A stretch of 64,000 nucleotides of DNA from IMG/VR virus record IMGVR_UViG_3300021960_000018; one strand, given 5' to 3'. Source of the stretch: a virus. The position numbers and the translations under genes were made by a program. Shown piece after piece: positions 2,548 to 33,023 of the stretch; position 1 is the stretch's first letter, and each line of letters begins with the position of its first letter. Under the pieces are notes generated by a model. That model ran no database searches. It was not told the DNA's origin and saw nothing but the letters and a program-made list of their open reading frames with translations.

Positions 2548-2900
2548 TAATTCAAATAATTACGACATTTTTTCAGTTTTTTCGAAATAAATTCTGGATC
2601 ATTGATCTGTCGGTTTAGTGGGGAAGGGTGAGGAAGCACGAAATGTTCTACATTAAGCTGAGAAAGGAATTTAGAAACCAGTCCACCTAAGGCTATTACT
2701 TTCTCGTGCCCGCGTACGCACGAGAGCACGTACTCGCGGTCGATCGCGCGCTTGTCCCAGTAAGGGTCATGGGATAGATTAGTAAATGCTACAATACCCA
2801 CCCCGAGGTCATCGATCCAGTCTTGTAAACGATACCAAGCACATCCCTTTCGGTACTGTGCCTTGGTAGGATTTAATCCGACAATTAAGGTCATCCCCAA
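2547..2900 (-). CDS. Uracil-DNA glycosylase-like fold protein
   Basis: IVGLNP motif, KVIALG, LPHPSPLN. Confidence 0.7.
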   Translation of the reverse strand: MGMTLIVGLNPTKAQYRKGCAWYRLQDWIDDLGVGIVAFTNLSHDPYWDKRAIDREYVLSCVRGHEKVIALGGLVSKFLSQLNVEHFVLPHPSPLNRQINDPEFISKKLKKCRNYLN

Positions 2901-3169
2901 TCCTTACGATCTTCCTCGTGGTTCCAACCGTATGCATATTGGAAGATTTCATCCGAAGTCATTTCATCCATTTCGATTCGACGGCCAAAGCCGGTGCCTT
3001 CGGGATACCAATGGGGGCTGAACTTTCGACCATAGTAACGATCCGCACTTCCACGATCTTGCGGGGATCCGTGAACTGGAAGTTTATTAGAATCTTTGGG
3101 AATGATCCCTCTACGAATATTTTCCGGATAAACGGTAATAAAACCGTCGTCTTCGATTTCACTGTCCAT
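2891..3169 (-). CDS. Hypothetical phage protein
   Basis: HGSPQDRGSADRYYGR segment; start reassigned to MDSEIE. Confidence 0.7.
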   Translation of the reverse strand: MDSEIEDDGFITVYPENIRRGIIPKDSNKLPVHGSPQDRGSADRYYGRKFSPHWYPEGTGFGRRIEMDEMTSDEIFQYAYGWNHEEDRKDWG

Positions 3170-3170
3170 A

Positions 3171-3575
3171 TTATGCAGCCTCCCATTCTTCAAACTTAAC
3201 AATGCCCATCAACTCTTTGACGAGTTCTTTCCCATAGTCGGTGAACAGAATTCCTTGTTTCCAGACCCAATGCTCAACATCCTGCTGGTGATAGAACTTT
3301 TCACCTTCAGTCATCCAGCGGAGAACATCTTCACGCGCAGGACGGCCATCAGCATACTCGTAGCACTTTTCGATCCAAGCTTCAAAGTTGGCAATAGCTT
3401 CCGCTTTCGCTTTCTCCTCACGCACCATTTCCTGGAGGAAATCTTGCTCCATATTGTCCCAGATATCCTGCTTACGCTCAGGAGTGGCATCGTAGAATTC
3501 ATCATTTCCACCAGGACGGAATCCGTAGGTGTCCTTGTGGAAGTCCGAGAAGAGCTCTTCAGAGTAAGTAAACAT
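3171..3575 (-). CDS. Early hypothetical phage protein
   Basis: SDFHKDTYGFRP N-terminus; SD and early promoter upstream. Confidence 0.8.
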   Translation of the reverse strand: MFTYSEELFSDFHKDTYGFRPGGNDEFYDATPERKQDIWDNMEQDFLQEMVREEKAKAEAIANFEAWIEKCYEYADGRPAREDVLRWMTEGEKFYHQQDVEHWVWKQGILFTDYGKELVKELMGIVKFEEWEAA

Positions 3576-3600
3576 GAGGTATCTCCTTGTTGATACTACT

Positions 3601-3634
3601 AATATAAGCCTTTTCGAATCGTTTGTAAACCCCC
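3601..3634 (-). promoter_or_regulatory. Early promoter TTTACA-N17-TATATT
   Basis: Third copy of the motif. Confidence 0.85.
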
Positions 3635-3648
3635 TTTTTACATTTTTT

Positions 3649-4209
3649 TCACTTTTTTAGTTGTTCGAATCCCCAGTTTTTCTCTCTGCATTGCCAACAC
3701 TCCCCACACTCTTCACCAGATGTTTTTCTGATGCAACTTCTCGTCTGTGATAGATCTATAGATAGTTGGTTAGCAAGATCGATAATGTGGTACTTGTATA
3801 GGTGTAAGAACGGGGTCTGCAATCTGGGAGTAGCAATGTTCCAGGGTCGACCTGGCTTGTCAGATGTGGCAAACTCTGGGAAGTATTCAAGGGGAGGAGT
3901 ATGGTTGATACCATAATATAGATTATCAATATCATAGTTTTTAAGAATATAATCTATAGCCGTGGGCACTCTTGCCCAATGTTCAGTAGTAAGTTCTGCG
4001 ATTTCGATTACGGGTTTGTTGGTAATAGCCTTTACTCTAGCGCTACTATCAAACCCGTCAGCTCTTGCAATATTAAAGATTATGGGATTATCAAGTAAAT
4101 GATACATGACAAAACTATCAATCCCGCCAGACATAATAATACCGGGCTTTTTATCGGTTGGGATATTGACTACCCTTTGATCCCATTCAGGTCCGCATAT
4201 ATATTGCAT
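3649..4209 (-). CDS. QueC-like PP-loop ATPase (short, divergent)
   Basis: SGGIDS PP-loop; SC-x8-CGECWQC Zn motif; start at MQYIC after GGAGG. Confidence 0.75.
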   Translation of the reverse strand: MQYICGPEWDQRVVNIPTDKKPGIIMSGGIDSFVMYHLLDNPIIFNIARADGFDSSARVKAITNKPVIEIAELTTEHWARVPTAIDYILKNYDIDNLYYGINHTPPLEYFPEFATSDKPGRPWNIATPRLQTPFLHLYKYHIIDLANQLSIDLSQTRSCIRKTSGEECGECWQCREKNWGFEQLKK

Positions 4210-4240
4210 AACAATCCTCCAAATCATAAGGTATATATCT

Positions 4241-5017
4241 ATGTATGACACTGTTGTTTCAGGATGTAGTTTTACTGCAGCTAATTTCAAGAGTCACGCA
4301 GCGCCTGATGTTGATACTAGCTGGCCAAAATGGCCTGAGTTATTAGGCAATGAAATGGGTTGGAGTGTATTAAATGTTGCCAAAAGCGGATACTCAAACG
4401 AAAGGATATGCGAAGAGGCCATAGAGGCTATAAAGGAAAATAGTAATATAAAAAGATGTATCATTGCTGCATCTGGATGGACTAGGTTTTCTCTTTTCGG
4501 ATATAATTTTATGTGGGATTTTATAATGCAAAAGGAAACCGGACTAGAGGTAATGAAATTGTGGGGTGATGAAGATCCAGAAACGAATCCTATCTATTTA
4601 AAACAAACTCGAGATTTAAAAGAAATAGTACGATTGGTGGAAGTTAAAGAAGAAAAAGCATATCGCCACAGTCTTAAAAAACAACTATACGCATTGGATT
4701 ATTTAAGATTAGTTTGTAAGCAGCGCAATATAGAATTATATTTCTTCCAGATGTTACCAATAGTTAATCATCTTTTTATTGATAGATATAATATAAAACA
4801 GCAGGTCCTGAATAGTTATGAATATAAAACTATGAAAAGGGAATGTAAATTTATTAAACGATACGATTCATTATATGAAAATAATATTATATTAATGAGT
4901 TTTTCAGATAAGAAATTATCTGATAAAGATTTAAGAGTTTCTGAATACGATCAGCATCCTAATAAATTATGTCATGAACTCATTGCACTATGGTTAAAGG
5001 AAGAAATAAATGGTTAA
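4241..5017 (+). CDS. SGNH/GDSL-like hydrolase or acyltransferase
   Basis: GCSFT block I, N-A-SG-SN block II, DQHPN..H block V. Confidence 0.7.
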   Translation: MYDTVVSGCSFTAANFKSHAAPDVDTSWPKWPELLGNEMGWSVLNVAKSGYSNERICEEAIEAIKENSNIKRCIIAASGWTRFSLFGYNFMWDFIMQKETGLEVMKLWGDEDPETNPIYLKQTRDLKEIVRLVEVKEEKAYRHSLKKQLYALDYLRLVCKQRNIELYFFQMLPIVNHLFIDRYNIKQQVLNSYEYKTMKRECKFIKRYDSLYENNIILMSFSDKKLSDKDLRVSEYDQHPNKLCHELIALWLKEEING

Positions 5018-17749: not shown

Positions 17750-18328
17750 TCATATGTTGTCTAGGTTGATGATCCCCATTGGTGCAAATTCTTGATGATG
17801 TGACATTTCGGTAACCTTAGGTGCATTCTTACCTAATAGATTATCGAACAACTGTTTAACACCAAGAGTAAGATCATCTACTGAACCGTTATTATCGATA
17901 ATAAAATCAGCCATCCACGGTTCAATACTGTTGCTTTCTTTGCTTTCTTCTTTAACATGCTCTGAGCGATCGACCCAGATAGCAATGTCGAATACACCAG
18001 CATTCTTCATAAAGGTGAATTCACGCTTGTTACGAAGACCACAGTAAATATCAGACTCTTTAAAGATTTCGCGGCCAAGTCGCGTTGGGTCTTCGGCACA
18101 ATAATTTGCTATGAGAGTATACCATCTTTTACGGTGCTTATGTCTATCTTTAAAGCATTCTTCTACAGTCTTATAACCAAATTCATGCTTAAGGACCGGG
18201 AAGACGACATGTTCAGCACAGAATTCACTGGACGAACGGAAAGACATACCGTAGAACATAGCTAAAAGCTCTGCTACGGTGTCTTTACCGTGACGACCAT
18301 GACCAACCAATACAATTTTAGGATTCAT
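17750..18328 (-). CDS. Deoxynucleoside monophosphate kinase-like P-loop protein
   Basis: GHGRHGKDT P-loop; GLRNKRE; DFIIDNNGS. Confidence 0.7.
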   Translation of the reverse strand: MNPKIVLVGHGRHGKDTVAELLAMFYGMSFRSSSEFCAEHVVFPVLKHEFGYKTVEECFKDRHKHRKRWYTLIANYCAEDPTRLGREIFKESDIYCGLRNKREFTFMKNAGVFDIAIWVDRSEHVKEESKESNSIEPWMADFIIDNNGSVDDLTLGVKQLFDNLLGKNAPKVTEMSHHQEFAPMGIINLDNI

Positions 18329-18917: not shown

Positions 18918-19127
18918 TTATGCTAATTTTTTTATGCCCAGACACCAATTTTCAGCAGCATCTTCTACATATCGCATAGACTTACCGGGGAACTCCTCAG
19001 TGAAGAACCTACGTCCCTCATTGTCAAAATATTTGATATAAAACATTTCTTCTTTATAATTTACATGGATCTCACAATGTCCTAGAGATGTGTTGTTATT
19101 ATAGAAAGTCGAAATCTTTTTACCCAT
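18918..19127 (-). CDS. Hypothetical phage protein
   Basis: ORF overlapping the end of thyX; YVEDAAENW segment. Confidence 0.7.
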   Translation of the reverse strand: MGKKISTFYNNNTSLGHCEIHVNYKEEMFYIKYFDNEGRRFFTEEFPGKSMRYVEDAAENWCLGIKKLA

Positions 19128-19782
19128 TTTGAATAAACTCCTCTATCATTGGGAAGCATCGCGCGATCGCGTACGCGCACTCTCTCGCGAGCTCGATGTG
19201 CTCTTTTTGTGTACCATTTCCAGACCTAAGTTCAATGTAATGTACCCAAGAGCGAAGGGTACCATTAACATAGAGACGGCTAACTGTGTTCCCCTCTGGT
19301 AGCACAGCGCGCGCCTGTTCCTTGGCAATCCCGGCCTGAATTGCCCATTTGTATGCCATTCGTGCTTCATGAATTATCTGTTCCTGTTTAATAATCCAAG
19401 CTTTTTTGATTTGTTCATCATCAGTTTCTATAGAATTCTGACGATTCTTTTCATCTTGCAGTCGTGCTTCTCTGACAACAAATTGTAGATCTTCGGTGGG
19501 GTCTGCATATCGCTGTGAGAATTCTTGGAAAGAAAAAGACCTATGCCGCAAAAACTGTCTAGCAATATCACGAGTGGTTTCAACCTCAAGTGTGGCAGAA
19601 GCCATTTCTAGTGGTGACCAATGTTTATGTTTGATCAGATAACGAATAAGCTTTTCGCCAGTTTCTGTATTTAGCTGATTCGAGGGATTTGATACACGAG
19701 CACAATAGGCAATAAGATCTTTTGCATTATCAATGCCGATCATATTAACCGGTTGGGTATAACCAATTAGTCTAGCCTTCAC
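19120..19782 (-). CDS. thyX: Flavin-dependent thymidylate synthase
   Basis: HWSPLE, RHRSFSFQEFSQRY, ARAVLP, TQKEH. Confidence 0.97.
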   Translation of the reverse strand: MKARLIGYTQPVNMIGIDNAKDLIAYCARVSNPSNQLNTETGEKLIRYLIKHKHWSPLEMASATLEVETTRDIARQFLRHRSFSFQEFSQRYADPTEDLQFVVREARLQDEKNRQNSIETDDEQIKKAWIIKQEQIIHEARMAYKWAIQAGIAKEQARAVLPEGNTVSRLYVNGTLRSWVHYIELRSGNGTQKEHIELARECAYAIARCFPMIEEFIQNG

Positions 19783-21647: not shown

Positions 21648-21889
21648 GCTGAAGCATCTTCTAATAGTGAGAATAGTATATCTTTTGCCACGGACTGTAA
21701 ATCCCCATTTTCTTTATCCAGATCGGCAACCGGGGAACTTATAAGATCAAAATTAAATTTAAGATGATCATCAACTACCTTAAGGGTTGTATATTGGATA
21801 ACAGTCTCTACAAAGTCACCTGACAAAATGCGAATCTGCCAGAACTCATTCTCAGTTGGGACTAGTTCATAGTCAACGTTTTCATGCAT
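21644..21889 (-). CDS. Hypothetical protein (at the position of T4 gp40)
   Basis: Lies between uvsX and 41; function positional only. Confidence 0.6.
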   Translation of the reverse strand: MHENVDYELVPTENEFWQIRILSGDFVETVIQYTTLKVVDDHLKFNFDLISSPVADLDKENGDLQSVAKDILFSLLEDASA

Positions 21890-22934
21890 CTTCATCATCA
21901 ATGATATCATCCATATTTACTGGTGCTGCATAACCAATCTTATATTGTTTTTCGATAAAAGATTTAAAGTCGGTATTAGCAAAGATAGGATCCCAGAACT
22001 CTTTTTCTAGAGTTTGATCGAGCCGTACTTTGCCGCCAACTTCACCAGTTTCCATATCAACCGTTGCATACCATCCATTCGAAGGTTTAGTAGCGTACCC
22101 ACCTGCAAGAGCCACGTCAAGAAGGCCAGAATAACGCTGAACACCACCGTCCCAGGAAACAGTAATAGGAATCTTAGACTTTTCCTTAACAAATCGAGAC
22201 TTTTCAACATTAATGACGAAGTTATACCCAACAATCTCTGTACCTTTCTTTTCCTGCTGACGACCGATGATCCAGATGTTATCGGCTGAATAATAAATGC
22301 CTGTACCACCAGACACAATCGCTTTCGGGAATAATCCCATCTCTTGATATGTATGGTTGACTGCAATCATAGGAATGTTCTTCATTGTCAGATAAGGTGT
22401 TGCCATGCGGAACAGGCCCTTAAGTGCTTTTGCTCTAGACATATCAGCAACTGATTTCTCGTTAATTGCATCCTCGAGTTCTTTCTTAGATGCAAGGTTA
22501 CCAATCGAGTCAATAACAATTACTACTTTATCACCACGCTCAATTCCTTCTAGTTGGTTAACTAGGTCAAACTTGAGTTGTTCTACGTCTGTGATAGGCG
22601 TATGCAATACCCGATCGGTATCGATACCAAACTGTTCGAAATAAGACTGTGGAGAACCGAACTCCGAATCATAGAAAAGAATAACCGAATCTTTATGCTG
22701 TTTCAGATATGCAGCCGCCATAAGCAGTGCGAACGACGTCTTGAAGTGTTTAGACGGACCAGCAAGAACTGTAAGACCCGAACTTAAACCGCCATCTACA
22801 GATCCAGACAGCGCAACGTTAATCATTGGAACATCGGTAGTAACCATATCCCTTTCATTAAAAAATTTAGATTCAGATAGAATAGATGTTGATTTAATCT
22901 TACTATTTTTCTGAAGTTTATCCATAATACTCAT
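21882..22934 (-). CDS. uvsX: UvsX RecA-like recombinase
   Basis: AGPSKHFKT, YDSEFG, IDSIGNLAS, SGGTG. Confidence 0.96.
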   Translation of the reverse strand: MSIMDKLQKNSKIKSTSILSESKFFNERDMVTTDVPMINVALSGSVDGGLSSGLTVLAGPSKHFKTSFALLMAAAYLKQHKDSVILFYDSEFGSPQSYFEQFGIDTDRVLHTPITDVEQLKFDLVNQLEGIERGDKVVIVIDSIGNLASKKELEDAINEKSVADMSRAKALKGLFRMATPYLTMKNIPMIAVNHTYQEMGLFPKAIVSGGTGIYYSADNIWIIGRQQEKKGTEIVGYNFVINVEKSRFVKEKSKIPITVSWDGGVQRYSGLLDVALAGGYATKPSNGWYATVDMETGEVGGKVRLDQTLEKEFWDPIFANTDFKSFIEKQYKIGYAAPVNMDDIIDDEDA

Positions 22935-23096
22935 CTAGTATCATTCTCCTTGTTATAAATTTCTTCGGCAAGAGTTTCAATACTTTTACCTTCCACATAA
23001 TTATATTTTACCAAATATTTGGCTTTTCGTAAATAATCATTTTGTTTTTCTTGGGGTAAATCTTCAAATTTTTTCATATCCAAAACCCTTTTTTAT

Positions 23097-23104
23097 TATA
23101 AATA
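23097..23104 (+). promoter_or_regulatory. Late promoter TATAAATA
   Basis: Exact consensus upstream of the endonuclease. Confidence 0.75.
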
Positions 23105-23165
23105 GAAGTGTAGATCGCGGTGCGGGAACACCCATCTACTCTAGAAACACAAGGAGATCTCCAGC

Positions 23166-23624
23166 ATGTACTATCTATATCTTAAGACCCATAATGTAAC
23201 CGGATTAAAGTATCTCGGTAAAACCAATTCAAATCCTTTTAAATATAAAGGTTCGGGTATTGTTTGGTCTCGACATTTACAAAAACATGGTAATGATGTT
23301 ACTACTACTGTTTTAAAAGAATGTCAAACCAATGAAGAAATACGTAGATGGGGCATTTATTATTCTGATAAATGGAATATCGTAGAATCTTCTGAATATG
23401 CAAATCTATGTCGGGAAGAAGGCCAGGGTGGTCATACTTATGATAAAAGAGGAAAATCCCGACCAAATGGATGTAAATTCCACAGAAGAGGTAGAAAACC
23501 TATTATAATAGACGATAAAGAATATATTAGTTCCCATTATGCCAGTAGCATATTAGACATACCCCAGTCAACCATCTCTTACAGAGTTAAGTCTGACTAT
23601 TGGCCAAATTACTCATTTGCGTAA
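23166..23624 (+). mobile_element. Free-standing GIY-YIG (Seg-like) homing endonuclease
   Basis: YLYLKTHNVTGLKYLGKT, YKGSG..W, C-terminal HTH-like segment; opposite strand to flanking genes. Confidence 0.85.
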
Positions 23625-24454
23625 GTGACATTTTGTTGTCTTTCCCTTTCATCTAAATCATATTGGGCTCTATACTCATTATTAATTCTAACACATTCTT
23701 CGACTAATGTAAACCTATCACTGTAATTAATTAGCGCATTTGTATCCTTTGGAAAACATGCTCCGCCATATCCTTGCTTACCGTCGAAGCCGGGAACTTT
23801 AGTATGTGAAGAACCAATACGAGGATCTGATGCAATGGCTTTCATAATGGTAGAATAATTGGCTCCAATATCTTGTGCAGCATCATATAGTTGATTAAAA
23901 AATGTAATCTTAGTAGCAAGGAATGCGTTAATCCCATATTTAACTAAAGAAGCTTCTGCCATACTCATAAAATGAAATGGTGCTGGATCGCATAGACTAT
24001 AATTTTCATATAGATCTTTTAATGCCCAGCATTCATCTACATCACCACCAATAATATGGAATTTAGGACGAACGAAATCTGCCTTGGCAAATCCCTCTGT
24101 AAGAAACTCAGGATTATATACAACCCCGCCAACGTCCCAATGTCGGATAATATCAGGAGTTACAGTTGATTTGATTACAATAATAGTGTTTATCAGCATA
24201 CTCTTAGTAAGGCGTTTCATTACCTTATTAAAGATAGTTGCGTCGATAGTGCCATCTTCCCCAAATGGTGTTGGTACACATACAAAAATAAAATGGCAGC
24301 TGCCGAGGATGCCAAGATTATTTTCTACTGTAGTATTATAGATTGGATCGATGATAACCTTTTCAACACGGTCATTGGTAAAGCCATAGTCAACAGCTTT
24401 ACCGACAAATCCGTGCCCAATAATAGCAATTCTTTTCAATTGATAAACTCCCAA
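23609..24454 (-). CDS. UDP-glucose/GDP-mannose dehydrogenase family protein (lacks C-terminal domain)
   Basis: GHGFVG, CVPTP, KSTV, NPEFL, GYGGACFPKD. Confidence 0.92.
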   Translation of the reverse strand: MGVYQLKRIAIIGHGFVGKAVDYGFTNDRVEKVIIDPIYNTTVENNLGILGSCHFIFVCVPTPFGEDGTIDATIFNKVMKRLTKSMLINTIIVIKSTVTPDIIRHWDVGGVVYNPEFLTEGFAKADFVRPKFHIIGGDVDECWALKDLYENYSLCDPAPFHFMSMAEASLVKYGINAFLATKITFFNQLYDAAQDIGANYSTIMKAIASDPRIGSSHTKVPGFDGKQGYGGACFPKDTNALINYSDRFTLVEECVRINNEYRAQYDLDERERQQNVTYANE

Positions 24455-24873
24455 TCAATCTGGGCTTCTTTGAACATTTCTAGAGTCTGTTCGACAGATT
24501 CCCGCCAACGTTCGTTGAAAGGATCCCCGTGCATAACAACACGATCAATACCTACTTGGATAATAGCCTTAGCGCATTCGCTGCAGCAGGGTAAGCCGTA
24601 GACGTACATGGTAGAACCTTTTAGGGATACACCATTGTAAGTAGCATTATAGATGCAGTTTGCTTCAGCGTGAACGATATATTTATACTTAATCTGACGA
24701 TCTGCATAACGTTCATTCATATCCAAAATGTGTCGTGGGAAGCCGTTATATCCTGTAGATAGTACTTCACCCTTCCCGCCTACCGCAATTGCACCGATTT
24801 TGCTGGAAGGATCTTTCGACCAAGTAGAAACTTCCTTGGCCAGGTTAATATAGCGGACGTCCCATTTATCCAT
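24436..24873 (-). CDS. dCMP deaminase
   Basis: SKDPS, TGYNG, HAEAN, PCCSEC; start reassigned to MDKWD. Confidence 0.92.
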   Translation of the reverse strand: MDKWDVRYINLAKEVSTWSKDPSSKIGAIAVGGKGEVLSTGYNGFPRHILDMNERYADRQIKYKYIVHAEANCIYNATYNGVSLKGSTMYVYGLPCCSECAKAIIQVGIDRVVMHGDPFNERWRESVEQTLEMFKEAQIDWEFIN

Positions 24874-26161
24874 AAAGTTCACTCCAGATTTTTTCATTGG
24901 TTTGGCGTTGTTGCATAGGATCTGTGCGGATTGCATCAGTCTTAAGAGGATGTTTGTCCCGCGAAAGAATCTTTTGTGGGACAAGATCTTTGAAAGCTTC
25001 TTTAAGAACTTTCTTTTCGCCATTACGTTGCTCGTACGGCGTGCGTAGCGCGTGCGTGACGACCTTAGGCGACAGGAATGGAGCACGAAGTTCAATAGTG
25101 CTATGCATCATCGTACGGTCCAATTTAGGTAGATGATAATAAGGCAATTCACACCAAATATCCGAAGCTTGGCTATCATACTCTTTTGCACGACGATATC
25201 CACCGAATAGTTCGTCAGCACCATCCCCGGTTAGGACTGCATGGAAACCGAGGTCATGTAGTTTTCCTGCCATAGCAATTTGTGGTTTGGTAGAACCAAG
25301 ATCAACTGGAGACTGATGTATAGCAACGCTATCCATGTCACTAACGCCGTGAAGTTGTACTTCGACCATATCTTTTGCAACCAATTTAGCATAGTCTTCT
25401 TCTCCATTATCGACGTGAATGGCTGTAACATCACGACCGAGGATATCAGTAATAATCTTATAAATGATGGTAGAATCTAGGCCGCCAGATAGTAGAATAG
25501 ACAGTTCACGCTGACCGCCAAGGCGTCGTTCGACTGATTCGATTAGGTCAGTGCGCAGGTCAGTGCACGAGGTCATTTTCCAATTCCAGTACTTGTGCAC
25601 TTGCCCTTTATGAATAAGGCATCCTGGAGGAAGTTGTTTAATTTCATTCCAGGGAGTACCACCAGTTGGATCATAGCCCCATTTCATAGTATTTGAATGG
25701 AACAGTTCGTTACGGGTGACAGGACCAAATTCTTTTAGTACATCTGGTTCAGAAGCCATAGCATCTACGTCAGTACGGTAATACAAAGGCTTAATACTAA
25801 GATGATCGGTAACACCAAACAGTGCGCCGTCCATAACAGTTACGTATGTCCAGAAGCCATCGAATCGATTAAACTCACGAATACCTTTGATCCAAAAGGT
25901 TTGCCATGCACAATCGATATCATTATCGAAGCCAAAATCTTCGTAGTTAAAGATTTCACCGACAAATAGTGAGTTACTACCAGGACGAGGCTGAATAGCG
26001 ACTTCAGGATCTAGATTAACAAATGGTAGACTTACGTGGCCGAGCTGAATAGGACCATTACGTTCATAGCCTTTATAACCCGGTAGTCCTCGATAAGCAA
26101 TTTTATCCAGTAATGATTCTACATCAACATCTGTATTGATTGCTGCAATGAAACCACACAT
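24866..26161 (-). CDS. Asparagine synthetase B-like glutamine amidotransferase
   Basis: N-terminal MCG (Ntn Cys), GEIFNY, SGGLDS, GDGADELFGGY, ELRAPFL. Confidence 0.92.
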   Translation of the reverse strand: MCGFIAAINTDVDVESLLDKIAYRGLPGYKGYERNGPIQLGHVSLPFVNLDPEVAIQPRPGSNSLFVGEIFNYEDFGFDNDIDCAWQTFWIKGIREFNRFDGFWTYVTVMDGALFGVTDHLSIKPLYYRTDVDAMASEPDVLKEFGPVTRNELFHSNTMKWGYDPTGGTPWNEIKQLPPGCLIHKGQVHKYWNWKMTSCTDLRTDLIESVERRLGGQRELSILLSGGLDSTIIYKIITDILGRDVTAIHVDNGEEDYAKLVAKDMVEVQLHGVSDMDSVAIHQSPVDLGSTKPQIAMAGKLHDLGFHAVLTGDGADELFGGYRRAKEYDSQASDIWCELPYYHLPKLDRTMMHSTIELRAPFLSPKVVTHALRTPYEQRNGEKKVLKEAFKDLVPQKILSRDKHPLKTDAIRTDPMQQRQTNEKIWSELYG

Positions 26162-26940
26162 TACACTGCTGCTCCTTCGAAGTTATCCCAATTGTATTCT
26201 TGAATGCCGGCAAGCTGTCTTAGTGCATATCGATCATTCTCGAAACAATGTAAACTAGTTGAGCTAAAATGTAAATACCCTGGTTTGGCATTTATACCAC
26301 TTTTTTCAATCATCCACATAGTTAGACGATTAGCAAAGTATAGGTCGTTGTGTAGGTGACGCACCACGTCGCAAGAGCGCATGTGATATGAACAGTGTAG
26401 TTCACCGCCGCGTTCCATAAAGTGCCAACCGAATGAACAGGGTACACGCTCACCCTGATTAGCAGCTACGATATCCTCGGGAAACCACATAGGAACATAA
26501 CACTGACGGGTAGTACTGTCCTTTTTAAGCAATTCAACGGCATCGCCAAGGTTGCCAGTCTTGAAGCGAATACCGTCCATGCTTGGTGCCCACATACGTT
26601 CGGGATACGAATGAGAGAACGCTTGTTGGCCCTCAGACATATATTTGTCTGTATCCTTGAGCCACATAGTGTGGGATGGGGGAGGATTAAGTGGTACACC
26701 GCCGGTACGTTCGTCAAAGTGTACGTCGGCCCAGGGTTGTGTAGCGCTTAGACCGTCTGATGCTTCTTTGGCATCAGTATACATTGGTGCTACTAGGTCA
26801 GCGTGAAGAATCTCCAGGAAGGTAGGCGGAGAGGTCGTACCCTGCCAGCTTCCCGTCTGAATCGTATACCCCTGTTTGTACAACAAAGTCCTTAAGTTTT
26901 TCAAGCCCTCGCTCAGATTTCTCCCGCTTACTCTGTTCAC
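26161..26940 (-). CDS. Thymidylate synthase homolog, dCMP hydroxymethylase-like
   Basis: VPC catalytic Cys; MRSCDVVRHLHND; SLH. Confidence 0.8.
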   Translation of the reverse strand: MNRVSGRNLSEGLKNLRTLLYKQGYTIQTGSWQGTTSPPTFLEILHADLVAPMYTDAKEASDGLSATQPWADVHFDERTGGVPLNPPPSHTMWLKDTDKYMSEGQQAFSHSYPERMWAPSMDGIRFKTGNLGDAVELLKKDSTTRQCYVPMWFPEDIVAANQGERVPCSFGWHFMERGGELHCSYHMRSCDVVRHLHNDLYFANRLTMWMIEKSGINAKPGYLHFSSTSLHCFENDRYALRQLAGIQEYNWDNFEGAAV

Positions 26941-27361
26941 TTTCGTATACCCTTTCTCTCAGGTTTGAAGAAGAGAACCTGTGGTCTCTCTTGTTATAAT
27001 AAATGTCAATACCAAGTGCGCGGCATTCTTCTTTACCGGTAAAGTCACGGGATCGATATTCATCACCAATAATACGGATATCAATAGGATACATCTCTAA
27101 GATATCCATAACGTCAGACTCTGTCTGATATGGGATAATTTCATCTACGTAACTAACAGCGGCAAGTTGGGAATGCCGCTCCACTAGGGTTTGTACTGGT
27201 GGATTCTTGTACATTCTATCATAACTTGGGTCCACTTGTAAACCACAAATTAGATGGTCGCACACACTTTTTGCTTCACGGAGCATGGCTATATGCCCCG
27301 CGTGAAGTAAATCAAAAGTGCTAAAGGTAATACCTACGATAGGCTTTTTAGGATGCTCCAT
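26798..27361 (-). CDS. Glycerol-3-phosphate cytidylyltransferase-like (TagD-like) nucleotidyltransferase
   Basis: FDLLHAGH, YVDEIIPY, RDHRFSSS. Confidence 0.88.
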   Translation of the reverse strand: MEHPKKPIVGITFSTFDLLHAGHIAMLREAKSVCDHLICGLQVDPSYDRMYKNPPVQTLVERHSQLAAVSYVDEIIPYQTESDVMDILEMYPIDIRIIGDEYRSRDFTGKEECRALGIDIYYNKRDHRFSSSNLRERVYESEQSKREKSERGLEKLKDFVVQTGVYDSDGKLAGYDLSAYLPGDSSR

Positions 27362-28065
27362 GTTTCTTCCCAACTCTTTACATGATGTGCATGGCTGCCA
27401 GAATTTGCAACTTCTAGCATGAGCGTATAATCATTTCCCCCTGGCTCCATTTTGTCTCCAAAGAAATGAATGTTATCATATGGGGAAAATTTATGAATGA
27501 TTTGGGATTTATCATATCCCTTTTCGACAATATCTATACCGGTTTCTCCTGCGACTTGGCAATCATAGGCAGGAAAATACGTATTCAAATAATCAGCAAT
27601 TGCTTGTCTTTCGTAATGAACGGCATCCCATTCTTTATATTCTTCCCGTTCATCGATAGTACATCCACGACCGATAATAGAAAAATTAACTAGGCCCGGT
27701 CTTACATCTACATGATTCCCGGTTTTAACTGGGAACTGACTTATCTGGAGGAAGTCGTCAAATGCGTCAAACATTTCCATAGGAAGTTCCATTTTACGAA
27801 CTTCAAGTCTTCTGTCTTTGTGCCAAATATCATTACCTGCGCACTGGAAACAGATCTGCATTGAATTATATAATCCGGAGCCGATTTGTTCTAAGGTTTT
27901 CGGACGGTCAGATCCTGTTACAATACAACAAAAATGATTGTTAGCAAAATCAATCATCCAGTCTCTAAACTTAGGATCAATTGTATGTCTACTATATGTG
28001 AGAGTTCCGTCTACGTCGAAAACGAACTTATTAAGGTCTGGTTTTGATTTTACATCAAGCTGCAT
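27334..28065 (-). CDS. HAD-type (eukaryotic-like) phosphomannomutase
   Basis: FDVDGTLT, VTGSD, NFSIIGR, FFGDKMEPGGNDY. Confidence 0.9.
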   Translation of the reverse strand: MQLDVKSKPDLNKFVFDVDGTLTYSRHTIDPKFRDWMIDFANNHFCCIVTGSDRPKTLEQIGSGLYNSMQICFQCAGNDIWHKDRRLEVRKMELPMEMFDAFDDFLQISQFPVKTGNHVDVRPGLVNFSIIGRGCTIDEREEYKEWDAVHYERQAIADYLNTYFPAYDCQVAGETGIDIVEKGYDKSQIIHKFSPYDNIHFFGDKMEPGGNDYTLMLEVANSGSHAHHVKSWEETWSILKSLS

Positions 28066-28414
28066 TCTCTGCTACTTTATCCATATCAAAATTAACACTC
28101 ACGCCGCAGCCACAAGAAGATTGCGCATTCGGATTTGAAATCTCAAATGTTGATCCAATAATGGATTTTGTATAATCAATAGTGGAACCAAGTAGAAACA
28201 TTAAACTTGTTGATCCTACTACAAAATTACCATTTTCACAGGGGATCAGAATATCGTTCTTTTCTATTTCAGATTCGGTCATTGTACCCCATTCATATTC
28301 GAACCCGGCACATCCTCCGCCCTTGATATTCAAACTAATCGCATGACAGTTATTTTCTTGACAAAGCTTGCCGATTTGGCTATTAGCGGATGGGGTTAAA
28401 AATACTAGAGACAT
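28055..28414 (-). CDS. iscA: HesB/IscA Fe-S cluster carrier
   Basis: GGGCAGFEY, NPNAQSSCGCGVS. Confidence 0.93.
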   Translation of the reverse strand: MSLVFLTPSANSQIGKLCQENNCHAISLNIKGGGCAGFEYEWGTMTESEIEKNDILIPCENGNFVVGSTSLMFLLGSTIDYTKSIIGSTFEISNPNAQSSCGCGVSVNFDMDKVAENAA

Positions 28415-28591
28415 TTAAGTTCCTTTATAGTCTTCTACGTCTTGAACGCAGACCATACCTTCCCAGGTTTTATTGATTGCAATTTCAGCCTCGTGCATAT
28501 CGTATAAACATTCTTCAAATGTTTCATATTCACCTAAATCTGTTACGATAACAGTCCCTTGAATTAACTGAATCCAAAGCAACATCCACAT
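28415..28591 (-). CDS. Small hypothetical protein
   Basis: 58-aa ORF read manually (MWMLWIQL...) filling the gap; TAATG coupling. Confidence 0.55.
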   Translation of the reverse strand: MWMLLWIQLIQGTVIVTDLGEYETFEECLYDMHEAEIAINKTWEGMVCVQDVEDYKGT

Positions 28592-28932
28592 TATTTATGT
28601 CCTACAGTTTCTCTTTTAATATCGTTATGGTTAAACTCGGCCCAATAAAGTTCAAATGCTACACCATCTTCAATACACTCAAACTGGTGATAGACACCAG
28701 GCTTGACTTTTGTATAGTCACCAGGGCCTAGTACAGTCTCATCCACCAGATCATAATCTTTTTGCCATACACGAATAAGCATACGACCTGATTCTACATA
28801 GAAGCCATTCCACTTATACTCATGAAGGTGTTTAGAACACACACCACCAGCTTCCATCTCAATTCGATGAAACTCGAGCACACCATTAGCTTCAATTAGT
28901 TCAGTCGTACCCCACACTTTTCCTGCGATCAT
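28591..28932 (-). CDS. Cupin protein (mannose-6-phosphate isomerase-like)
   Basis: KVWG, CSKHLH, PGVYHQF. Confidence 0.8.
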   Translation of the reverse strand: MIAGKVWGTTELIEANGVLEFHRIEMEAGGVCSKHLHEYKWNGFYVESGRMLIRVWQKDYDLVDETVLGPGDYTKVKPGVYHQFECIEDGVAFELYWAEFNHNDIKRETVGHK

Positions 28933-29264
28933 TTCCCATCACCTTTCAAACATTTGCGAACATGCTCGATCTTATAATCACGATCCCAACCCTTTAAATA
29001 GTCGTTGTCACGATCAAAGAATGTCAGCATTTCATCTTCAGTGCATTCGTAGTGATCTACGATCTGTTCACCAAGCCATTCCTGTGAAAACTCTTCACAC
29101 TCTTGCATAGTTACTGTATCTAGTGCCCAATCAACTAGATCTTTTTCGGTTGGGGTAACATCTGTATTCAACTTACTCAAATCATCTTTGTGCATTACAT
29201 AACGCATACGATGTGTTGAAATAGTTGTTACTACAATATAATCATTGTTCGCCATAGATATCAA
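28929..29264 (-). CDS. Hypothetical protein
   Basis: EFSQEWLGEQI and FDRDNDYL segments; coupled to neighbours. Confidence 0.7.
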   Translation of the reverse strand: MISMANNDYIVVTTISTHRMRYVMHKDDLSKLNTDVTPTEKDLVDWALDTVTMQECEEFSQEWLGEQIVDHYECTEDEMLTFFDRDNDYLKGWDRDYKIEHVRKCLKGDGK

Positions 29265-29481
29265 TCACCCTGTTCAATGCATGAATATCTTGGACCAGGC
29301 ATTCCCAGTCTTCTTCTTCGTGTAGCAAAAGCTCACGATTAGCTTTAATATTATCAAGTCGTTCACGTTCCATTGTATACATGTCGCGAGACTCTTTCAA
29401 ACGGTGTACAACCATAGCATCCATAAGATCCCAAACCGCTTCGTGCTCAAGTGCTTTTGCCAATAAATCAATTACTTTCAT
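29242..29481 (-). CDS. Hypothetical protein
   Basis: ORF within a coupled run. Confidence 0.6.
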   Translation of the reverse strand: MKVIDLLAKALEHEAVWDLMDAMVVHRLKESRDMYTMERERLDNIKANRELLLHEEEDWECLVQDIHALNRVIDIYGEQ

Positions 29482-29642: not shown

Positions 29643-29821
29643 TCATCTACCTCCCAATAACGACAGTAGAAGTGTTTAGGCATTTTATCAATCTCGAATT
29701 GTGGATAGCCTTCGCTCAACAGCCAAGGGATAATACTTTCCCCCTCTGGATAATCTGCAGGCAACGGTTTAGGAAATCCATACTTCCATCCACTAGGTGG
29801 ATCTACCATTGTTCTTTTCAT
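29639..29821 (-). CDS. Small hypothetical protein
   Basis: DPPSGWKYGFPK segment; start MKRTMV. Confidence 0.65.
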   Translation of the reverse strand: MKRTMVDPPSGWKYGFPKPLPADYPEGESIIPWLLSEGYPQFEIDKMPKHFYCRYWEVDE

Positions 29822-30485
29822 TCCACTTCCTCGCATCCTCTGGTGTATTAATCTCAATACCATTAAAGGTTACTGGTAAGACACCAATATCATGTCCATT
29901 TTTTAGCCAACGTAGTTGTTCTAATTTTTCGACGCGTTCTTCTTTTGTACCAGTCATGTACGGATACAATTGTAACACATCTTTGTGGTATCCGTAAACC
30001 CCCAAATGCCAATCTCCGTATCCAGTCATTCCTCTGCCGAACCACAAACATTTATCCCCAGCTCTAACCAGTTTAACCGAATTAGGATTATTTTGTTCTT
30101 CTTCCGGCATCAATGCACAAACCGTAGAGACTTTATAATAATTTAACATCTTTTCGGTTTTTTGGATCATCTCTAAAGTAACATCCGGCATATCACCTTG
30201 TACGTTAATAAATCGATCATAATGAGATAATAATGCAGATTTATTAACAGCGCCGGCACACCGCTCAGTCCCATTTTCATATGGATCTGTATCTACAATT
30301 AATTTATTATCTGGGAATAAATCTATAATTAAAGGATGGTCAGTCAACACATAGGTATCAAGACCGGCCTCTTTACATGCATTATATACTCTGACGATCA
30401 TATGGTGATCACCAAGCATAGTTAGAGGTTTACCTGGAAATCGAGTTGATCCGTATCTAGCCGGAATGAGGATAGCGGTCGCCAT
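29793..30485 (-). CDS. kdsB: CMP-Kdo synthetase
   Basis: IPARYGSTRFPGKPL, NGTER, NVQGD, HLGVYGY, EKLEQLRWL. Confidence 0.93.
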   Translation of the reverse strand: MATAILIPARYGSTRFPGKPLTMLGDHHMIVRVYNACKEAGLDTYVLTDHPLIIDLFPDNKLIVDTDPYENGTERCAGAVNKSALLSHYDRFINVQGDMPDVTLEMIQKTEKMLNYYKVSTVCALMPEEEQNNPNSVKLVRAGDKCLWFGRGMTGYGDWHLGVYGYHKDVLQLYPYMTGTKEERVEKLEQLRWLKNGHDIGVLPVTFNGIEINTPEDARKWNEKNNGRST

Positions 30486-31301
30486 TTACCAATTCCTATA
30501 ATTTCTATCAATAGGTGCTGTTTCTTTTGGTGTATAATGGCATCTATCGATACCATCAATCACCTTTTGAAAATCCATAAGTTTAACCATATTAGGTCCG
30601 TCGGATGGAGCATTTTCAGGATCAGGATGTACTTCTAAAAAGAAGTTTTTAATACCCAAAGCAGAGCCTGCACGACATAGCCCAGGAACATAATCTCGAT
30701 TGCCGCCACTAGAACTGCCTTGCCCACCTGGTTTTTGAACGGAGTGCGTGGCGTCCAAAACAATAGGACAATCAAAGTTATTAAGCATATAGTCAAGGCC
30801 GGTGAAATCAACCACCAAATTATTATATCCAAAACTAGTACCCCTTTCAGTAATCCAAATTTCTTTTGCGCCTTCAGTTTTTGACAAAATGCCTGCAACA
30901 TCCCATGGTGCTAGGAACTGTCCCTTTTTAATATTAACGATCTTATTGCTTTCTACAGCTGCACGAATTAAATCAGTTTGCCGGCATAGAAAGGCTGGGA
31001 TCTGAATAACATCAACACTATCTCTAAAATGATTTCGAATGAACATAACATCTTCGACACTATGCACATCTGTAAGAATCTTAAGATCCGGAATGTTCTT
31101 TTTCATCTCCCTGAAATCAAACATTGTTTGGGGTAAACCTTTACCCCGTTTTCCATTCATAGAGGTGCGATTAGCTTTGTCATAGCTGGCTTTAAAAACA
31201 TATTCAAATCCAAACTGTTCGCAATCCCATTTGCAAGCTTTTGCGATCTCTAAAGATTGTTCTAATGATTCGTGCTGACAGGGACCGGCAATAATACGCA
31301 T
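30486..31301 (-). CDS. kdsA: Kdo-8-phosphate synthase
   Basis: IAGPC, KASYDKANRTS, QIPAFLCRQT, KKGQF, DATHSVQ, SDGPN. Confidence 0.96.
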   Translation of the reverse strand: MRIIAGPCQHESLEQSLEIAKACKWDCEQFGFEYVFKASYDKANRTSMNGKRGKGLPQTMFDFREMKKNIPDLKILTDVHSVEDVMFIRNHFRDSVDVIQIPAFLCRQTDLIRAAVESNKIVNIKKGQFLAPWDVAGILSKTEGAKEIWITERGTSFGYNNLVVDFTGLDYMLNNFDCPIVLDATHSVQKPGGQGSSSGGNRDYVPGLCRAGSALGIKNFFLEVHPDPENAPSDGPNMVKLMDFQKVIDGIDRCHYTPKETAPIDRNYRNW

Positions 31302-31696: not shown

Positions 31697-32623
31697 CTAT
31701 ACGTTTTTGTAAGCATATTCAAGTGCGCGATCCGCCTCAACCTCTAGCGGACGATTTTCATACCAATTACCATTCTCACGATCAAACTCTTGGCATAGAT
31801 TCGCGATCTGAGATGCAGTAATTGGGTATTCCTTAGTAATTGCTTTAGCAGCCGTAGCTACCATAATCTGGTACATCTTATGATACCAACCAGTTTCAGT
31901 AATTGCTCTGTATTCGTCTGCAAGTTTACGTGGCCAGAATGGACAGTCATTATAACCAGACCAAACATAGTTGGTGTTTTCCATTTTCGATCTACGATGT
32001 TCGATTACAGACCGCTGAATAGCTTCAGGTAGTCTATCCATAAAGTTATTGCTATGCTGTTTTTCTACATACGGGAATCTAGAAAGAAGAGCATCAACGT
32101 CAAGGGTATCGCTGCCACCAGAGAAAATAAAATTGAAAGCGCTATCGTACGTCGCAGGTACGTAGTACATTCGACTAAGGTCCTTAGTTTGACGATCTCC
32201 GGCACTGTCAAGGTAATTGTTGAGTGCCCACCAGAAGTGTTTAATCTGTCCGGACTCAATATATCGCGAGAGTCTGAAGACAATTCGAAACTTTGGTTTA
32301 TCAATTTTACTGCTGGCTGTACTATAGCAAATATAGGAATAAGAACCGCACATATTATCAACAACATCTTTTACGTCCCCATGAATCTCAATGTCGTCAA
32401 CATCAACAGCAGCCCAACCTGCCCAAGTAAGTACGTTTTTGTTGGCTCTAGTTGTATTAGGAACATAGACAGCCGGGGAAATAAGTTCAGCATCTTTTTT
32501 ACCTCCTAAAGGTCGATTAGATAATGCGAATAAGAACCTCTCGAAGTGCGCCCAATCCGAGAAGTCCATCTGCTTTGGTACATTGTCATATTGACTCTTA
32601 AAAGACGTCAGGGAGATTGCCAT
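31697..32623 (-). CDS. AEP/PrimPol-type primase-like protein
   Basis: AVDVDD, YSTASS...KFRIVF, D.QTKD.SRMYY.P; start reassigned to MAISLT. Confidence 0.7.
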   Translation of the reverse strand: MAISLTSFKSQYDNVPKQMDFSDWAHFERFLFALSNRPLGGKKDAELISPAVYVPNTTRANKNVLTWAGWAAVDVDDIEIHGDVKDVVDNMCGSYSYICYSTASSKIDKPKFRIVFRLSRYIESGQIKHFWWALNNYLDSAGDRQTKDLSRMYYVPATYDSAFNFIFSGGSDTLDVDALLSRFPYVEKQHSNNFMDRLPEAIQRSVIEHRRSKMENTNYVWSGYNDCPFWPRKLADEYRAITETGWYHKMYQIMVATAAKAITKEYPITASQIANLCQEFDRENGNWYENRPLEVEADRALEYAYKNV

Positions 32624-33023
32624 GGTTATCCTCGTGGCTAGGAGCTTTCCAACCTTCTGGTTTAAGTAGATCTGGAAGACCGAATGGATTAGGACGGCCC
32701 GGTTTAACACCCGGTTCTTTTGTCATATTTGCCCTATAGACTTTATTCCATGCTTGATTTGCATCTACCCCAAATACGTCTAGTGTACCGATAGCAAATA
32801 CACAAAGGTCGATTAGACCATCGACAATCTCTTCAGGATCTTTATTGTCTACGGCAGTAAGGGTTTCATCCAACTCTTCTTTACACATAGACAACCTAAA
32901 GGCAAGATACTTTGCCATAAGATCCTTATCGTGTTTATTCTCTTCAAACCACTGCCTTACACCAAACTTATGGTGCATAGCAGCAATATCATCGGGCCAA
33001 TTAGACATTATATTCTCCATCAA
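32598..33023 (-). CDS. MazG-like NTP pyrophosphohydrolase
   Basis: EELDE...EEIVDGLID, ANMTK, KPEGW..P. Confidence 0.85.
   Translation of the reverse strand: MMENIMSNWPDDIAAMHHKFGVRQWFEENKHDKDLMAKYLAFRLSMCKEELDETLTAVDNKDPEEIVDGLIDLCVFAIGTLDVFGVDANQAWNKVYRANMTKEPGVKPGRPNPFGLPDLLKPEGWKAPSHEDNHGNLPDVF

Follow-up and report, generated by a model that had tools for sequence, protein, structure and literature searches.

A thymidylate synthase homologue linked to a virus-only AsnB-like amidotransferase in an uncultured marine T4-like phage: a candidate pathway to a nitrogen-bearing cytosine

The DNA analysed here, a stretch of 64,000 nucleotides from the IMG/VR virus record IMGVR_UViG_3300021960_000018, hereafter called the window, is part of a complete viral genome of 157,283 bp with direct terminal repeats, which belongs to an uncultured marine T4-like phage. 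Domain calls on the open reading frames (ORFs) of the window were made with Pfam, NCBIfam and PHROGs. Both in coordinates and in domains they upheld an earlier note, made from this DNA sequence alone, in which six overlapping, co-directional genes on the minus strand had been described, encoding a PMM-like protein, a cytidylyltransferase-like protein, a thymidylate synthase (TS) homologue, an enzyme resembling asparagine synthetase (AsnB), a deoxycytidine monophosphate (dCMP) deaminase and a dehydrogenase. The TS-like, AsnB-like and deaminase genes form a conserved core unit, and the set probably makes an undescribed nitrogen-bearing cytosine for the phage DNA, as far as can be judged from its genes. 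The three are located as follows:

24436-24873, minus strand: dCMP deaminase, about 145 amino acids, in an ORF open to 25095 (dCMP_cyt_deam_1, 5e-19)
24866-26161, minus strand: AsnB-like amidotransferase, 431 amino acids (Asn_synthase, 1e-30)
26161-26940, minus strand: TS-family enzyme, 259 amino acids, GTG start (Thymidylat_synt, 1e-7; PHROG TS, 3e-31)

The translation of the TS-like gene contains VPC (residues 166-168) and RSCDVVRHLHND. The earlier note had reported the catalytic PC together with this motif, with Asp at the position of Asn177 and His for the usual Gly, and had assigned the homologue to the cytosine type. The motif and both substitutions were confirmed by the translation and by gap-free alignments to the TS of L. 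casei and E. faecalis, to MilA and to the HY126 enzyme, in which Asp199, His195 and Asp191 fall in the N177, G173 and D169 columns (E. coli ThyA numbering). In all members examined, 25 diverse and 68 further ones, with or without AsnB, the invariant columns were Glu43 (ThyA E58), Trp70 (W80), Tyr112 (Y94), Arg165 (L143), Cys168 (C146), Arg188-Ser189-Cys190-Asp191 (R166-D169), Arg194 (L172), His195 (G173), Asp199 (N177), His231 (H207) and Phe233 (Y209). Asp199 was invariant down to 33% identity, and also in the phages Muddy, Zuko and Yersinia P744.

A sequence-profile search of the PDB gave MilA (E 1.5e-9) and the enzyme of entries 9iqc/9iqu as the best matches of the TS-like protein. Its AlphaFold model (predicted local distance difference test, pLDDT, 91.5) matched the HY126 dCMP hydroxylase and MilA best in Foldseek, with probability 1.00 to many TS entries, and the assignment to the cytosine type is supported by these nearest relatives as well as by the invariant Asp at N177. 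The ThyA equivalog cut-offs were missed (NF002497, 21.6 vs 327 bits; TIGR03283, 30.4 vs 174.55). The family is large and distinct, with 214 clusters in a database clustered at 90% identity and more than 1,000 representatives at E ≤ 0.001; it is also present in 252 cultured-phage records at identities of 42% or less, among them Muddy, Zuko, many Gordonia phages and Yersinia P744.

The pelagimyophage literature took such an enzyme to be an ordinary second thymidylate synthase, fed deoxyuridine monophosphate (dUMP) by the deaminase; 'two thymidylate synthases and a dCMP deaminase' were reported in pelagimyophage group C and not analysed further (PMC7029224). A TS beside a dCMP deaminase is indeed the classical route to deoxythymidine monophosphate (dTMP). 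Here this explanation is nevertheless considered highly improbable, given the invariant Asp at N177, the score far below the ThyA cut-off, the cytosine-specific nearest relatives in both profile and fold, and a further gene already in the genome, placed at 19120 in the earlier note and found there:

19120-19782, minus strand: ThyX flavin-dependent thymidylate synthase (PF02511, 7e-44)

ThyX would be expected to supply dTMP independently of the TS-like gene.

Criteria for the classes of TS homologues were taken from PMC13326640, in which T4-type dCMP hydroxymethylases are recognised by N177D with an acidic residue (Asp/Glu) at L143, and D169N is proposed as diagnostic of flavin-dependent 5-hydroxy-dCMP synthases. 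By these criteria the TS-like enzyme is classed as cytosine-type because of N177D, and not as T4-type because the residue at L143 is Arg. A 5-hydroxy-dCMP synthase was also considered, and was ruled out by the retained D169. The polar residue at the L143 column speaks against a plain methylase. With Arg at L143, D169 kept and Asp at N177, the enzyme fits none of the three characterised classes, and no characterised TS homologue was found with Arg at L143, Asp at 169, His at 173 and Asp at 177. Three cationic residues are brought in, Arg165, Arg194 and His195. L143 and G173 of ThyA lie within 6 Å of C5 (PMC13326640); Arg165 and His195 replace these two, and Arg194 (L172) is their neighbour in the sequence. 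The enzyme is predicted to be a cytosine-nucleotide C5 one-carbon transferase.

The start of the AsnB-like gene overlaps the stop codon of the TS-like gene (TAATG), an arrangement that points to translational coupling. Its product begins with MCGF, which provides the Met-Cys-Gly nucleophile, and has the PP-loop LLSGGLDST; both were invariant in 23 relatives. The model (pLDDT 88.6) had E. coli AsnB as its best Foldseek match (template modelling, TM, score 0.77), at 20% sequence identity, the phage protein being about 120 residues shorter (431 vs 553-554 amino acids). The AsnB equivalog cut-offs were missed (TIGR01536, 155.7 vs 267.1; NF006949, 100.8 vs 499). No variation was seen at Cys2, in SGGLDS or at the positions corresponding to AsnB D351, E352 and K449, and in the pairwise alignment D384 and R387 of AsnB correspond to His343 and Lys346. 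We take these five AsnB residues to be part of the synthetase site, including aspartate binding, the alignment being a remote one.

The best cellular relative of the AsnB-like protein was at most 30% identical among 185,579 prokaryotic species represented by one genome each, and the phage members are more than 41% identical among themselves; it therefore belongs to a virus-only clade and is not a recent host-derived auxiliary gene. A tblastn search of cultured phages gave seven weak matches (22-27% identity), none of which was seen adjoining a TS gene. A complex prediction for the TS-like and AsnB-like proteins gave a score of 0.02, which carries no weight either way.

The co-occurrence of TS and AsnB across phages had been suggested as a check in the earlier note, and it was observed in both directions. 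The TS-like gene led to 83 loci; in 76 of them the AsnB-like gene was directly downstream of it, and in 75 the deaminase gene was found. IMG/VR contained 555 stretches with the TS-like and 410 with the AsnB-like family, the latter scanned with an alignment as query (the AsnB of one locus, L001, used as a single sequence gave one match). In the reverse search, which covered the 80 best loci of these 410 stretches, with AsnB identity down to 41%, all 63 loci with readable upstream DNA had the TS-like gene, usually 32 bp or less away. The AsnB-like gene thus depends on the TS-like gene, and the TS-like gene is independent of the AsnB-like one.

The gene order in the T4-like backbone is DNA polymerase, PRA-PH, a 310-amino-acid protein, a variable island, TS, AsnB, deaminase, a variable slot, UvsX, gp41 and ThyX. 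L001, a T4-like genome with different flanks, has retained the TS-AsnB-deaminase trio. In a complete phage of 42,082 bp with a family-A polymerase, five consecutive overlapping genes encode TS, a Tmk-like kinase, AsnB, PRA-PH and deaminase, and are placed between PolA/VRR-NUC genes and a SNF2 helicase gene. The gene order of L094 is the same as that of this cassette, and in L107 an N6/N4 methylase gene is followed by TS, AsnB and deaminase. The PRA-PH and deaminase of the window are homologous to their counterparts in the PolA-phage cassette, and the 'thymidylate kinase' encoded next to the TS-like gene in Muddy, Zuko and P744 is a homologue of the Tmk-like kinase of that cassette. Linkage to the TS-like gene in both the T4-like and the PolA-phage lineages places the AsnB-like enzyme inside a nucleotide-pool module.

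The same linkage bears on the suggestion that the AsnB-like gene is an unlinked auxiliary gene, supplying the infected cell with asparagine or some other small amide, which came to lie beside the TS-like gene by descent and permissive insertion, the TS-like enzyme alone modifying dCMP. In fold and catalytic motifs the protein matches AsnB, neighbouring intergenic sites take unrelated auxiliary genes, and the TS-like gene occurs without AsnB in cultured phages and some marine relatives. However, the AsnB-like gene was never found without the TS-like gene (63/63), and in the unrelated PolA lineage it sits between the nucleotide kinase and the MazG-like gene. The distance of all cellular relatives, the shorter length, the scores below the AsnB cut-offs and the His and Lys in the D384 and R387 columns also count against this suggestion, which is regarded as unlikely.

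In L022/L023 (about 2600-4300) the TS-like and AsnB-like genes are separated by inserted genes for S-adenosylhomocysteine hydrolase and an N6/N4 DNA methylase, and the same methylase family is found one or two genes upstream of the TS-like gene in 21 loci. Directly upstream of it in 43 loci (e.g. L053, 3448-3801) is a gene for a 118-amino-acid protein with a weak DUF1599/Nmad1 match (E 0.009, below the cut-off), which is absent from the source phage genome. The frequent proximity of N6/N4 methylases to the TS-AsnB module would suit an AsnB-like enzyme that belongs to the modification system and acts post-replicatively, its target being DNA or some other acceptor, for instance a cofactor, and not a free deoxynucleotide. 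Among the known hypermodifications of thymidine most are completed on the DNA itself, and glutamine amidotransferases are found alongside the machinery involved (PMC8989533, PMC13229309). Action after replication is still thought very unlikely, since the compact cassettes flank AsnB with nucleotide-pool enzymes only, Pfam shows no DNA-binding domain, and no 5-HMUDK or amino-acid:DNA transferase turned up among the genes scanned.

Further nucleotide-pool enzymes, and one conserved protein of the backbone, are encoded in the window:

17750-18328, minus strand: T4-gp1-type deoxynucleoside monophosphate (dNMP) kinase-like protein, candidate modified-dCMP kinase (weak Pfam DNMK match; PHROG 139, 4e-13)
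31697-32710, minus strand: conserved protein of 310-337 amino acids without a Pfam match (partial PHROG 'DNA primase')
32598-33023, minus strand: PRA-PH/MazG-like pyrophosphohydrolase, backbone gene, candidate dCTPase

A dNMP kinase and a MazG-like gene had both been listed in the earlier note, and both are present. The kinase-like protein of the window and the Tmk-like kinase of the cassettes are not homologues. The PRA-PH/MazG-like gene adjoins the DNA polymerase gene in 51 loci, and the conserved 310-337-amino-acid protein always follows PRA-PH in the backbone (53 loci). The deaminase has the zinc motifs HAE and PCxxC and most likely starts at the Met at 24873; its relatives are 137-186 amino acids long, mostly 143-159.

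The other three genes of the overlapping run, together with a group just upstream, are the following:

23609-24454, minus strand: NAD-dependent dehydrogenase, 281 amino acids (UDPG_MGDP_dh, N-terminal 2e-14 and central 9e-20)
26798-27373, minus strand: cytidylyltransferase-like protein of the RfaE domain II/TagD type with the motif HAGH (CTP_transf_like, 2e-12)
27334-28065, minus strand: PMM-like HAD-IIB phosphomutase or phosphatase with the motif DVDGT (PMM/HAD-IIB, 1e-28)
28055-28932, minus strand: IscA-like Fe-S assembly protein (119 amino acids) and a cupin (113 amino acids; PHROG 'cysteine dioxygenase')
29793-30485, minus strand: KdsB-like protein, 230 amino acids (CTP_transf_3)
30486-31301, minus strand: KdsA-like protein, 271 amino acids (DAHP_synth_1 family)

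The cytidylyltransferase-like protein is predicted to be a sugar-phosphate nucleotidyltransferase, and the phage appears to encode synthesis of CMP-3-deoxy-D-manno-octulosonate (CMP-Kdo). The KdsA-like and KdsB-like genes are common to few close relatives only, and the IscA-like and cupin genes are placed between them and the PMM-like gene. The dehydrogenase aligns to PDB 4a7p and has kept IIGHGFVG (GxGxxG) and the catalytic Cys in GGACFPKD. It lacks the C-terminal UDP-binding domain, as do all its relatives, the match covering profile positions 75-298 of 413, and it scored 151.3 against a TIGR03026 cut-off of 189.8. The relatives are mostly 271-290 amino acids long (one ORF, 320), with UvsX directly next. 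A homing endonuclease as the cause of the short dehydrogenase was ruled out, as relatives free of the endonuclease have the same short gene, followed by UvsX.

A nucleotidyltransferase gene was found in 30 of the 83 loci, a dehydrogenase gene in 23 and a PMM gene in 16, against 76 with AsnB, and the three are restricted to L058/59 and the subclade whose TS shares 78% identity or more with that of the window. The variable island contains the genes for the PMM-like, nucleotidyltransferase, KdsA-like, KdsB-like and cupin proteins; the dehydrogenase gene occupies the variable slot after the deaminase. At most AsnB loci no dehydrogenase, nucleotidyltransferase or PMM gene was present within the fetched flanks, and no sugar genes adjoin the PolA-phage cassettes. 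The whole genome gave no match to PF00534, PF00535 or PF11440 (glycosyltransferase families GT1 and GT2 and the T4 alpha-glucosyltransferase), searches which novel transferase families would escape; for the T4 beta-glucosyltransferase (PF09198) there was no match, with no signal from the control either. Two sub-threshold GT8-like ORFs were seen more than 19 kb past the window end. The sugar genes are thus accessory and not part of the conserved core.

The earlier note had offered an amidated uronic sugar as one outcome of the pathway. The AsnB-like enzyme would then be of the WbpS type, converting a nucleoside diphosphate (NDP)-uronic acid, made by the PMM-like, nucleotidyltransferase and dehydrogenase gene products, to a uronamide that is attached to hydroxymethyl- or hydroxycytosine in DNA or else to a glycan of the host or the virion. 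In this phage the sugar genes, TS-like and AsnB-like all overlap, the KdsA-like and KdsB-like genes are just upstream, and the dehydrogenase and AsnB fit a logic of alcohol to acid to amide; the TS homologues of RB69 and DLP3 are likewise surrounded by sugar-nucleotide genes (PMC13326640). For this phage the uronamide is possible. Confinement of the sugar genes to the closest subclade means, however, that it cannot explain the conserved TS-AsnB pairing. The cassettes without sugar genes, the missing UDP-binding domain and the scarcity of glycosyltransferase matches speak against it too, as does the interpretation of rfaE and UGDH as lipopolysaccharide-related auxiliary genes in pelagimyophages (PMC7029224). 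As a general explanation the amidated sugar does not hold, and it is rated quite unlikely overall.

The other outcome in the earlier note, in which cytosine is first modified at C5 and afterwards aminated or amidated, is favoured by the AsnB-TS linkage in two unrelated lineages. With somewhat more belief than doubt, we suggest that deoxycytidine is replaced, through a nucleotide-pool pathway, by a cytosine substituted at C5 and tailored by amination or amidation that depends on ATP and glutamine. Co-occurrence of TS, PRA-PH and dCMP deaminase marks contigs shown to have modified cytosine, a different tailoring enzyme adjoining TS there (PMC8670742), and the RB69 and DLP3 TS homologues make modified dCMP that depends on the phage dNMP kinase (PMC13326640).

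The substrates, the order of steps, the product and its incorporation into DNA are, as we infer them, the following. The MazG-like PRA-PH pyrophosphatase would convert deoxycytidine triphosphate (dCTP) to dCMP. Cys168 of the TS-like enzyme would attack C6 of dCMP and a one-carbon unit would be added at C5, with Asp199 selecting cytosine and Asp191 retaining its folate-binding role; as Arg165 replaces the hydrophobic Leu143 of reductive methylation, a hydroxymethyl-type and not a methyl product would be expected. The PP-loop of the AsnB-like enzyme would then activate the substituent with ATP, and ammonia from the N-terminal Cys domain would give a nitrogen-bearing group, the candidates being 5-aminomethyl-dCMP, if an activated hydroxymethyl is the precursor, or a 5-carboxamide, if a carboxylate is. 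The dNMP kinase and host NDP kinase would produce the triphosphate for incorporation by the phage polymerase, while the deaminase would drain leftover dCMP to dUMP, from which ThyX would make dTMP. In the window subclade the short four-electron dehydrogenase could provide the amidotransferase with COOH by oxidising CH2OH, or could serve the sugar genes. This conversion of hydroxymethyl to carboxylate to carboxamide, possible for that subclade, was rejected as a general route because most AsnB loci and the PolA cassettes lack the dehydrogenase.

Several points weigh against the proposed amination or amidation. No difference in the TS-like active-site columns was found between phages with and without AsnB, which makes AsnB optional to the TS-like reaction. 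AsnB-family enzymes amidate carboxylates, and a folate-dependent TS-type reaction yields no carboxylate, so that one of the two steps needs chemistry without family precedent: either the TS-like enzyme delivers a carboxylate-bearing substituent, or the PP-loop domain activates the hydroxymethyl for displacement by ammonia. What we take to be the oxyanion-hole residue Asn74 of AsnB is Val67 here, and the glutaminase may be weak. In relatives the slot between deaminase and UvsX is variously occupied by ribosomal protein S21, by an AhpC-type peroxiredoxin or by a short protein of the UDG superfamily (examples: L064, 3852-4109; L079, 8538-9047; L037, 5335-5688); as an insertion hot-spot for auxiliary genes it makes adjacency alone weaker evidence. 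Most T4-like loci are related by descent, and their counts are not independent. The AsnB-less marine T4-like loci L003 (10001-12886), L075 and L077 have the TS-like gene, a Tmk-like kinase, dCMP deaminase and a C5 cytosine DNA methyltransferase in AsnB's place, its gene following the deaminase in L003, and full C5 substitution would leave this methyltransferase without a substrate. All support is genomic, and no isolate exists.

The fuller form of the proposal is plausible, with doubt slightly prevailing: that the virus-only AsnB-type enzyme turns a C5 substituent, placed on dCMP by a TS-fold enzyme of a new class, into an amine or amide, and that a previously unknown nitrogen-bearing cytosine so formed replaces cytosine in the DNA of widespread marine T4-like phages and of PolA phages unrelated to them. 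Pre-replicative pyrimidine hypermodification through TS homologues is known for 5-hydroxymethylcytosine (hmC), 5-hydroxycytosine and 5-carbamoyloxymethylcytosine. A new DNA base, e.g. 5-aminomethyl- or 5-carboxamidocytosine, would be added to these if the proposal is true, and the AsnB-like step would be the first of a PP-loop amidotransferase in DNA base hypermodification. The literature search found no link between TS and AsnB, an amidotransferase or a PP-loop enzyme in TS-based modification (Iyer et al. 2013, NAR 41:7635, lay outside the search), and glutamine amidotransferases were mentioned only with the thymidine hypermodification machinery (PMC8989533, PMC13229309). Modified cytosine in such phages would affect restriction and defence evasion, and would bias virome sequencing and quantification.

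Two more features lie next to the run, on the side of the dehydrogenase:

21882-22934: UvsX (Pfam and PHROGs)
23166-23624, plus strand: homing-endonuclease-like ORF with an I-TevI DNA-binding domain (PHROG 314), between the dehydrogenase gene and uvsX

An endonuclease-free allele exists, as a contig in an independent run from 2025 (X5) joins 22928 to 23626; the homing endonuclease gene is a separate insertion, and both alleles circulate. The genome also encodes a gp41-type helicase and a family-B DNA polymerase. Near-identical DNA is present in marine and estuarine metagenomes of several studies from 2016-2025, and a DNA search of the cultured-phage collection gave short weak matches only and no close relative. 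In a metatranscriptome run (X20) short contigs matched AsnB, a TS relative, the nucleotidyltransferase and UvsX; they were not counted as expression, DNA carry-over being possible. With ribosomal protein S21 in the same region of relatives and rfaE-like and UGDH-like genes, the phage group looks like the pelagimyophages of PMC7029224. An ORF of 79 amino acids (29242-29481, minus strand) had a CsgG (curli) match exactly at the Pfam cut-off (20.8 bits), and curli-type genes are known in pelagimyophages (PMC7029224). As for the setting, the hosts of pelagimyophages count among the sea's most abundant bacteria.

Compared with known systems, the TS-like enzyme has the TS fold and catalytic Pro-Cys in common with ThyA, whereas the uracil-selecting Asn177 of ThyA is Asp in it. 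The T4 pathway from deoxycytidine to hmC (gp56 dCTPase, gp42 dCMP hydroxymethylase, gp1 dNMP kinase and cd deaminase) follows the same logic of pool reprogramming in a T4-like phage, with a TS-fold enzyme having Asp at N177 and Asp169, and a pyrophosphatase, dNMP kinase and dCMP deaminase are likewise present here. The TS-like enzyme is, however, remote from the T4 hydroxymethylase (profile E 1e-5 to 1b5d), its L143 column having Arg in place of Asp/Glu and its G173 column His. A search for an alpha-glucosyltransferase found none, the one for a beta-glucosyltransferase carries no information, its control being silent, and an AsnB-type amidotransferase is inserted between TS-like and deaminase. 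MilA, the CMP hydroxymethylase of mildiomycin, also combines Asp at N177 with a charged residue at L143, but this is Asp in MilA and Arg here, and MilA is longer and about 12% identical, its substrate being a ribonucleotide in an antibiotic pathway.

The flavin-dependent 5-hydroxy-dCMP synthases (RB69 gp48, DLP3 gp80 and HY126 AfhB; 9iqc/9iqu) are the best structural neighbours (TM 0.73-0.80) and have in common with the present system a short TS-fold enzyme in T4-like phages and adjoining sugar-nucleotide genes; their enzyme acts on dCMP. The 9iqu/9iqc sequence has RSQN at the columns where RSCD of the TS-like enzyme keeps the invariant Asp191. The RB69/DLP3 arabinosylation clusters have a GT-B transferase, whereas none adjoins the TS-like gene here; their sugar genes encode arabinose-5-P isomerase and a kinase-uridylyltransferase, in contrast to the PMM-like, RfaE-II-like and KdsA/KdsB proteins of the window, and they are without an amidotransferase.

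Among cultured phages, Muddy gp46-49 (L087, 4030-6238), Zuko gp73-77 (L088, 2379-6303) and Yersinia P744 ORF025-030 (L086, 3984-7705) combine the TS-like enzyme with a Tmk-like kinase, dUTPase/MazG and dCMP deaminase. The gene order is kinase, dUTPase/MazG, a protein of about 300 amino acids, TS-like, dCMP deaminase and PolA, and the TS-like motifs are RSCDxxRHxxxD and R-V/K-PC. The active-site columns are identical to those of the window enzyme at 38-42% identity (Muddy, Zuko) and 31% (P744), but the modules are without AsnB, and the uncharacterised protein of about 300 amino acids precedes the TS-like gene, those of Muddy and Zuko being homologous to each other. No publication was found on DNA modification in Muddy, Zuko or P744, which by analogy may have modified cytosine too. 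Occurrence of the family without AsnB in cultured phages, including the therapeutic Mycobacterium phage Muddy, extends the question of the TS-like product beyond marine viruses.

The AsnB-like enzyme has the two-domain fold of E. coli AsnB, beta-lactam synthetase, TsnB9 and WbpS-type enzymes, with the N-terminal nucleophile (Ntn) Cys, SGGLDS and the equivalents of D351, E352 and K449, but differs from them in the changed Asn74, Asp384 and Arg387 columns and in forming a virus-only clade that always stands beside the TS-like gene. The 5-carbamoyloxymethylcytosine module found by MetaGPA (PMC8670742) has the same skeleton of an Asp177 TS, PRA-PH and dCMP deaminase with one tailoring enzyme adjoining TS; that enzyme is an O-carbamoyltransferase, whereas here it is an AsnB-type ATP/glutamine amidotransferase.

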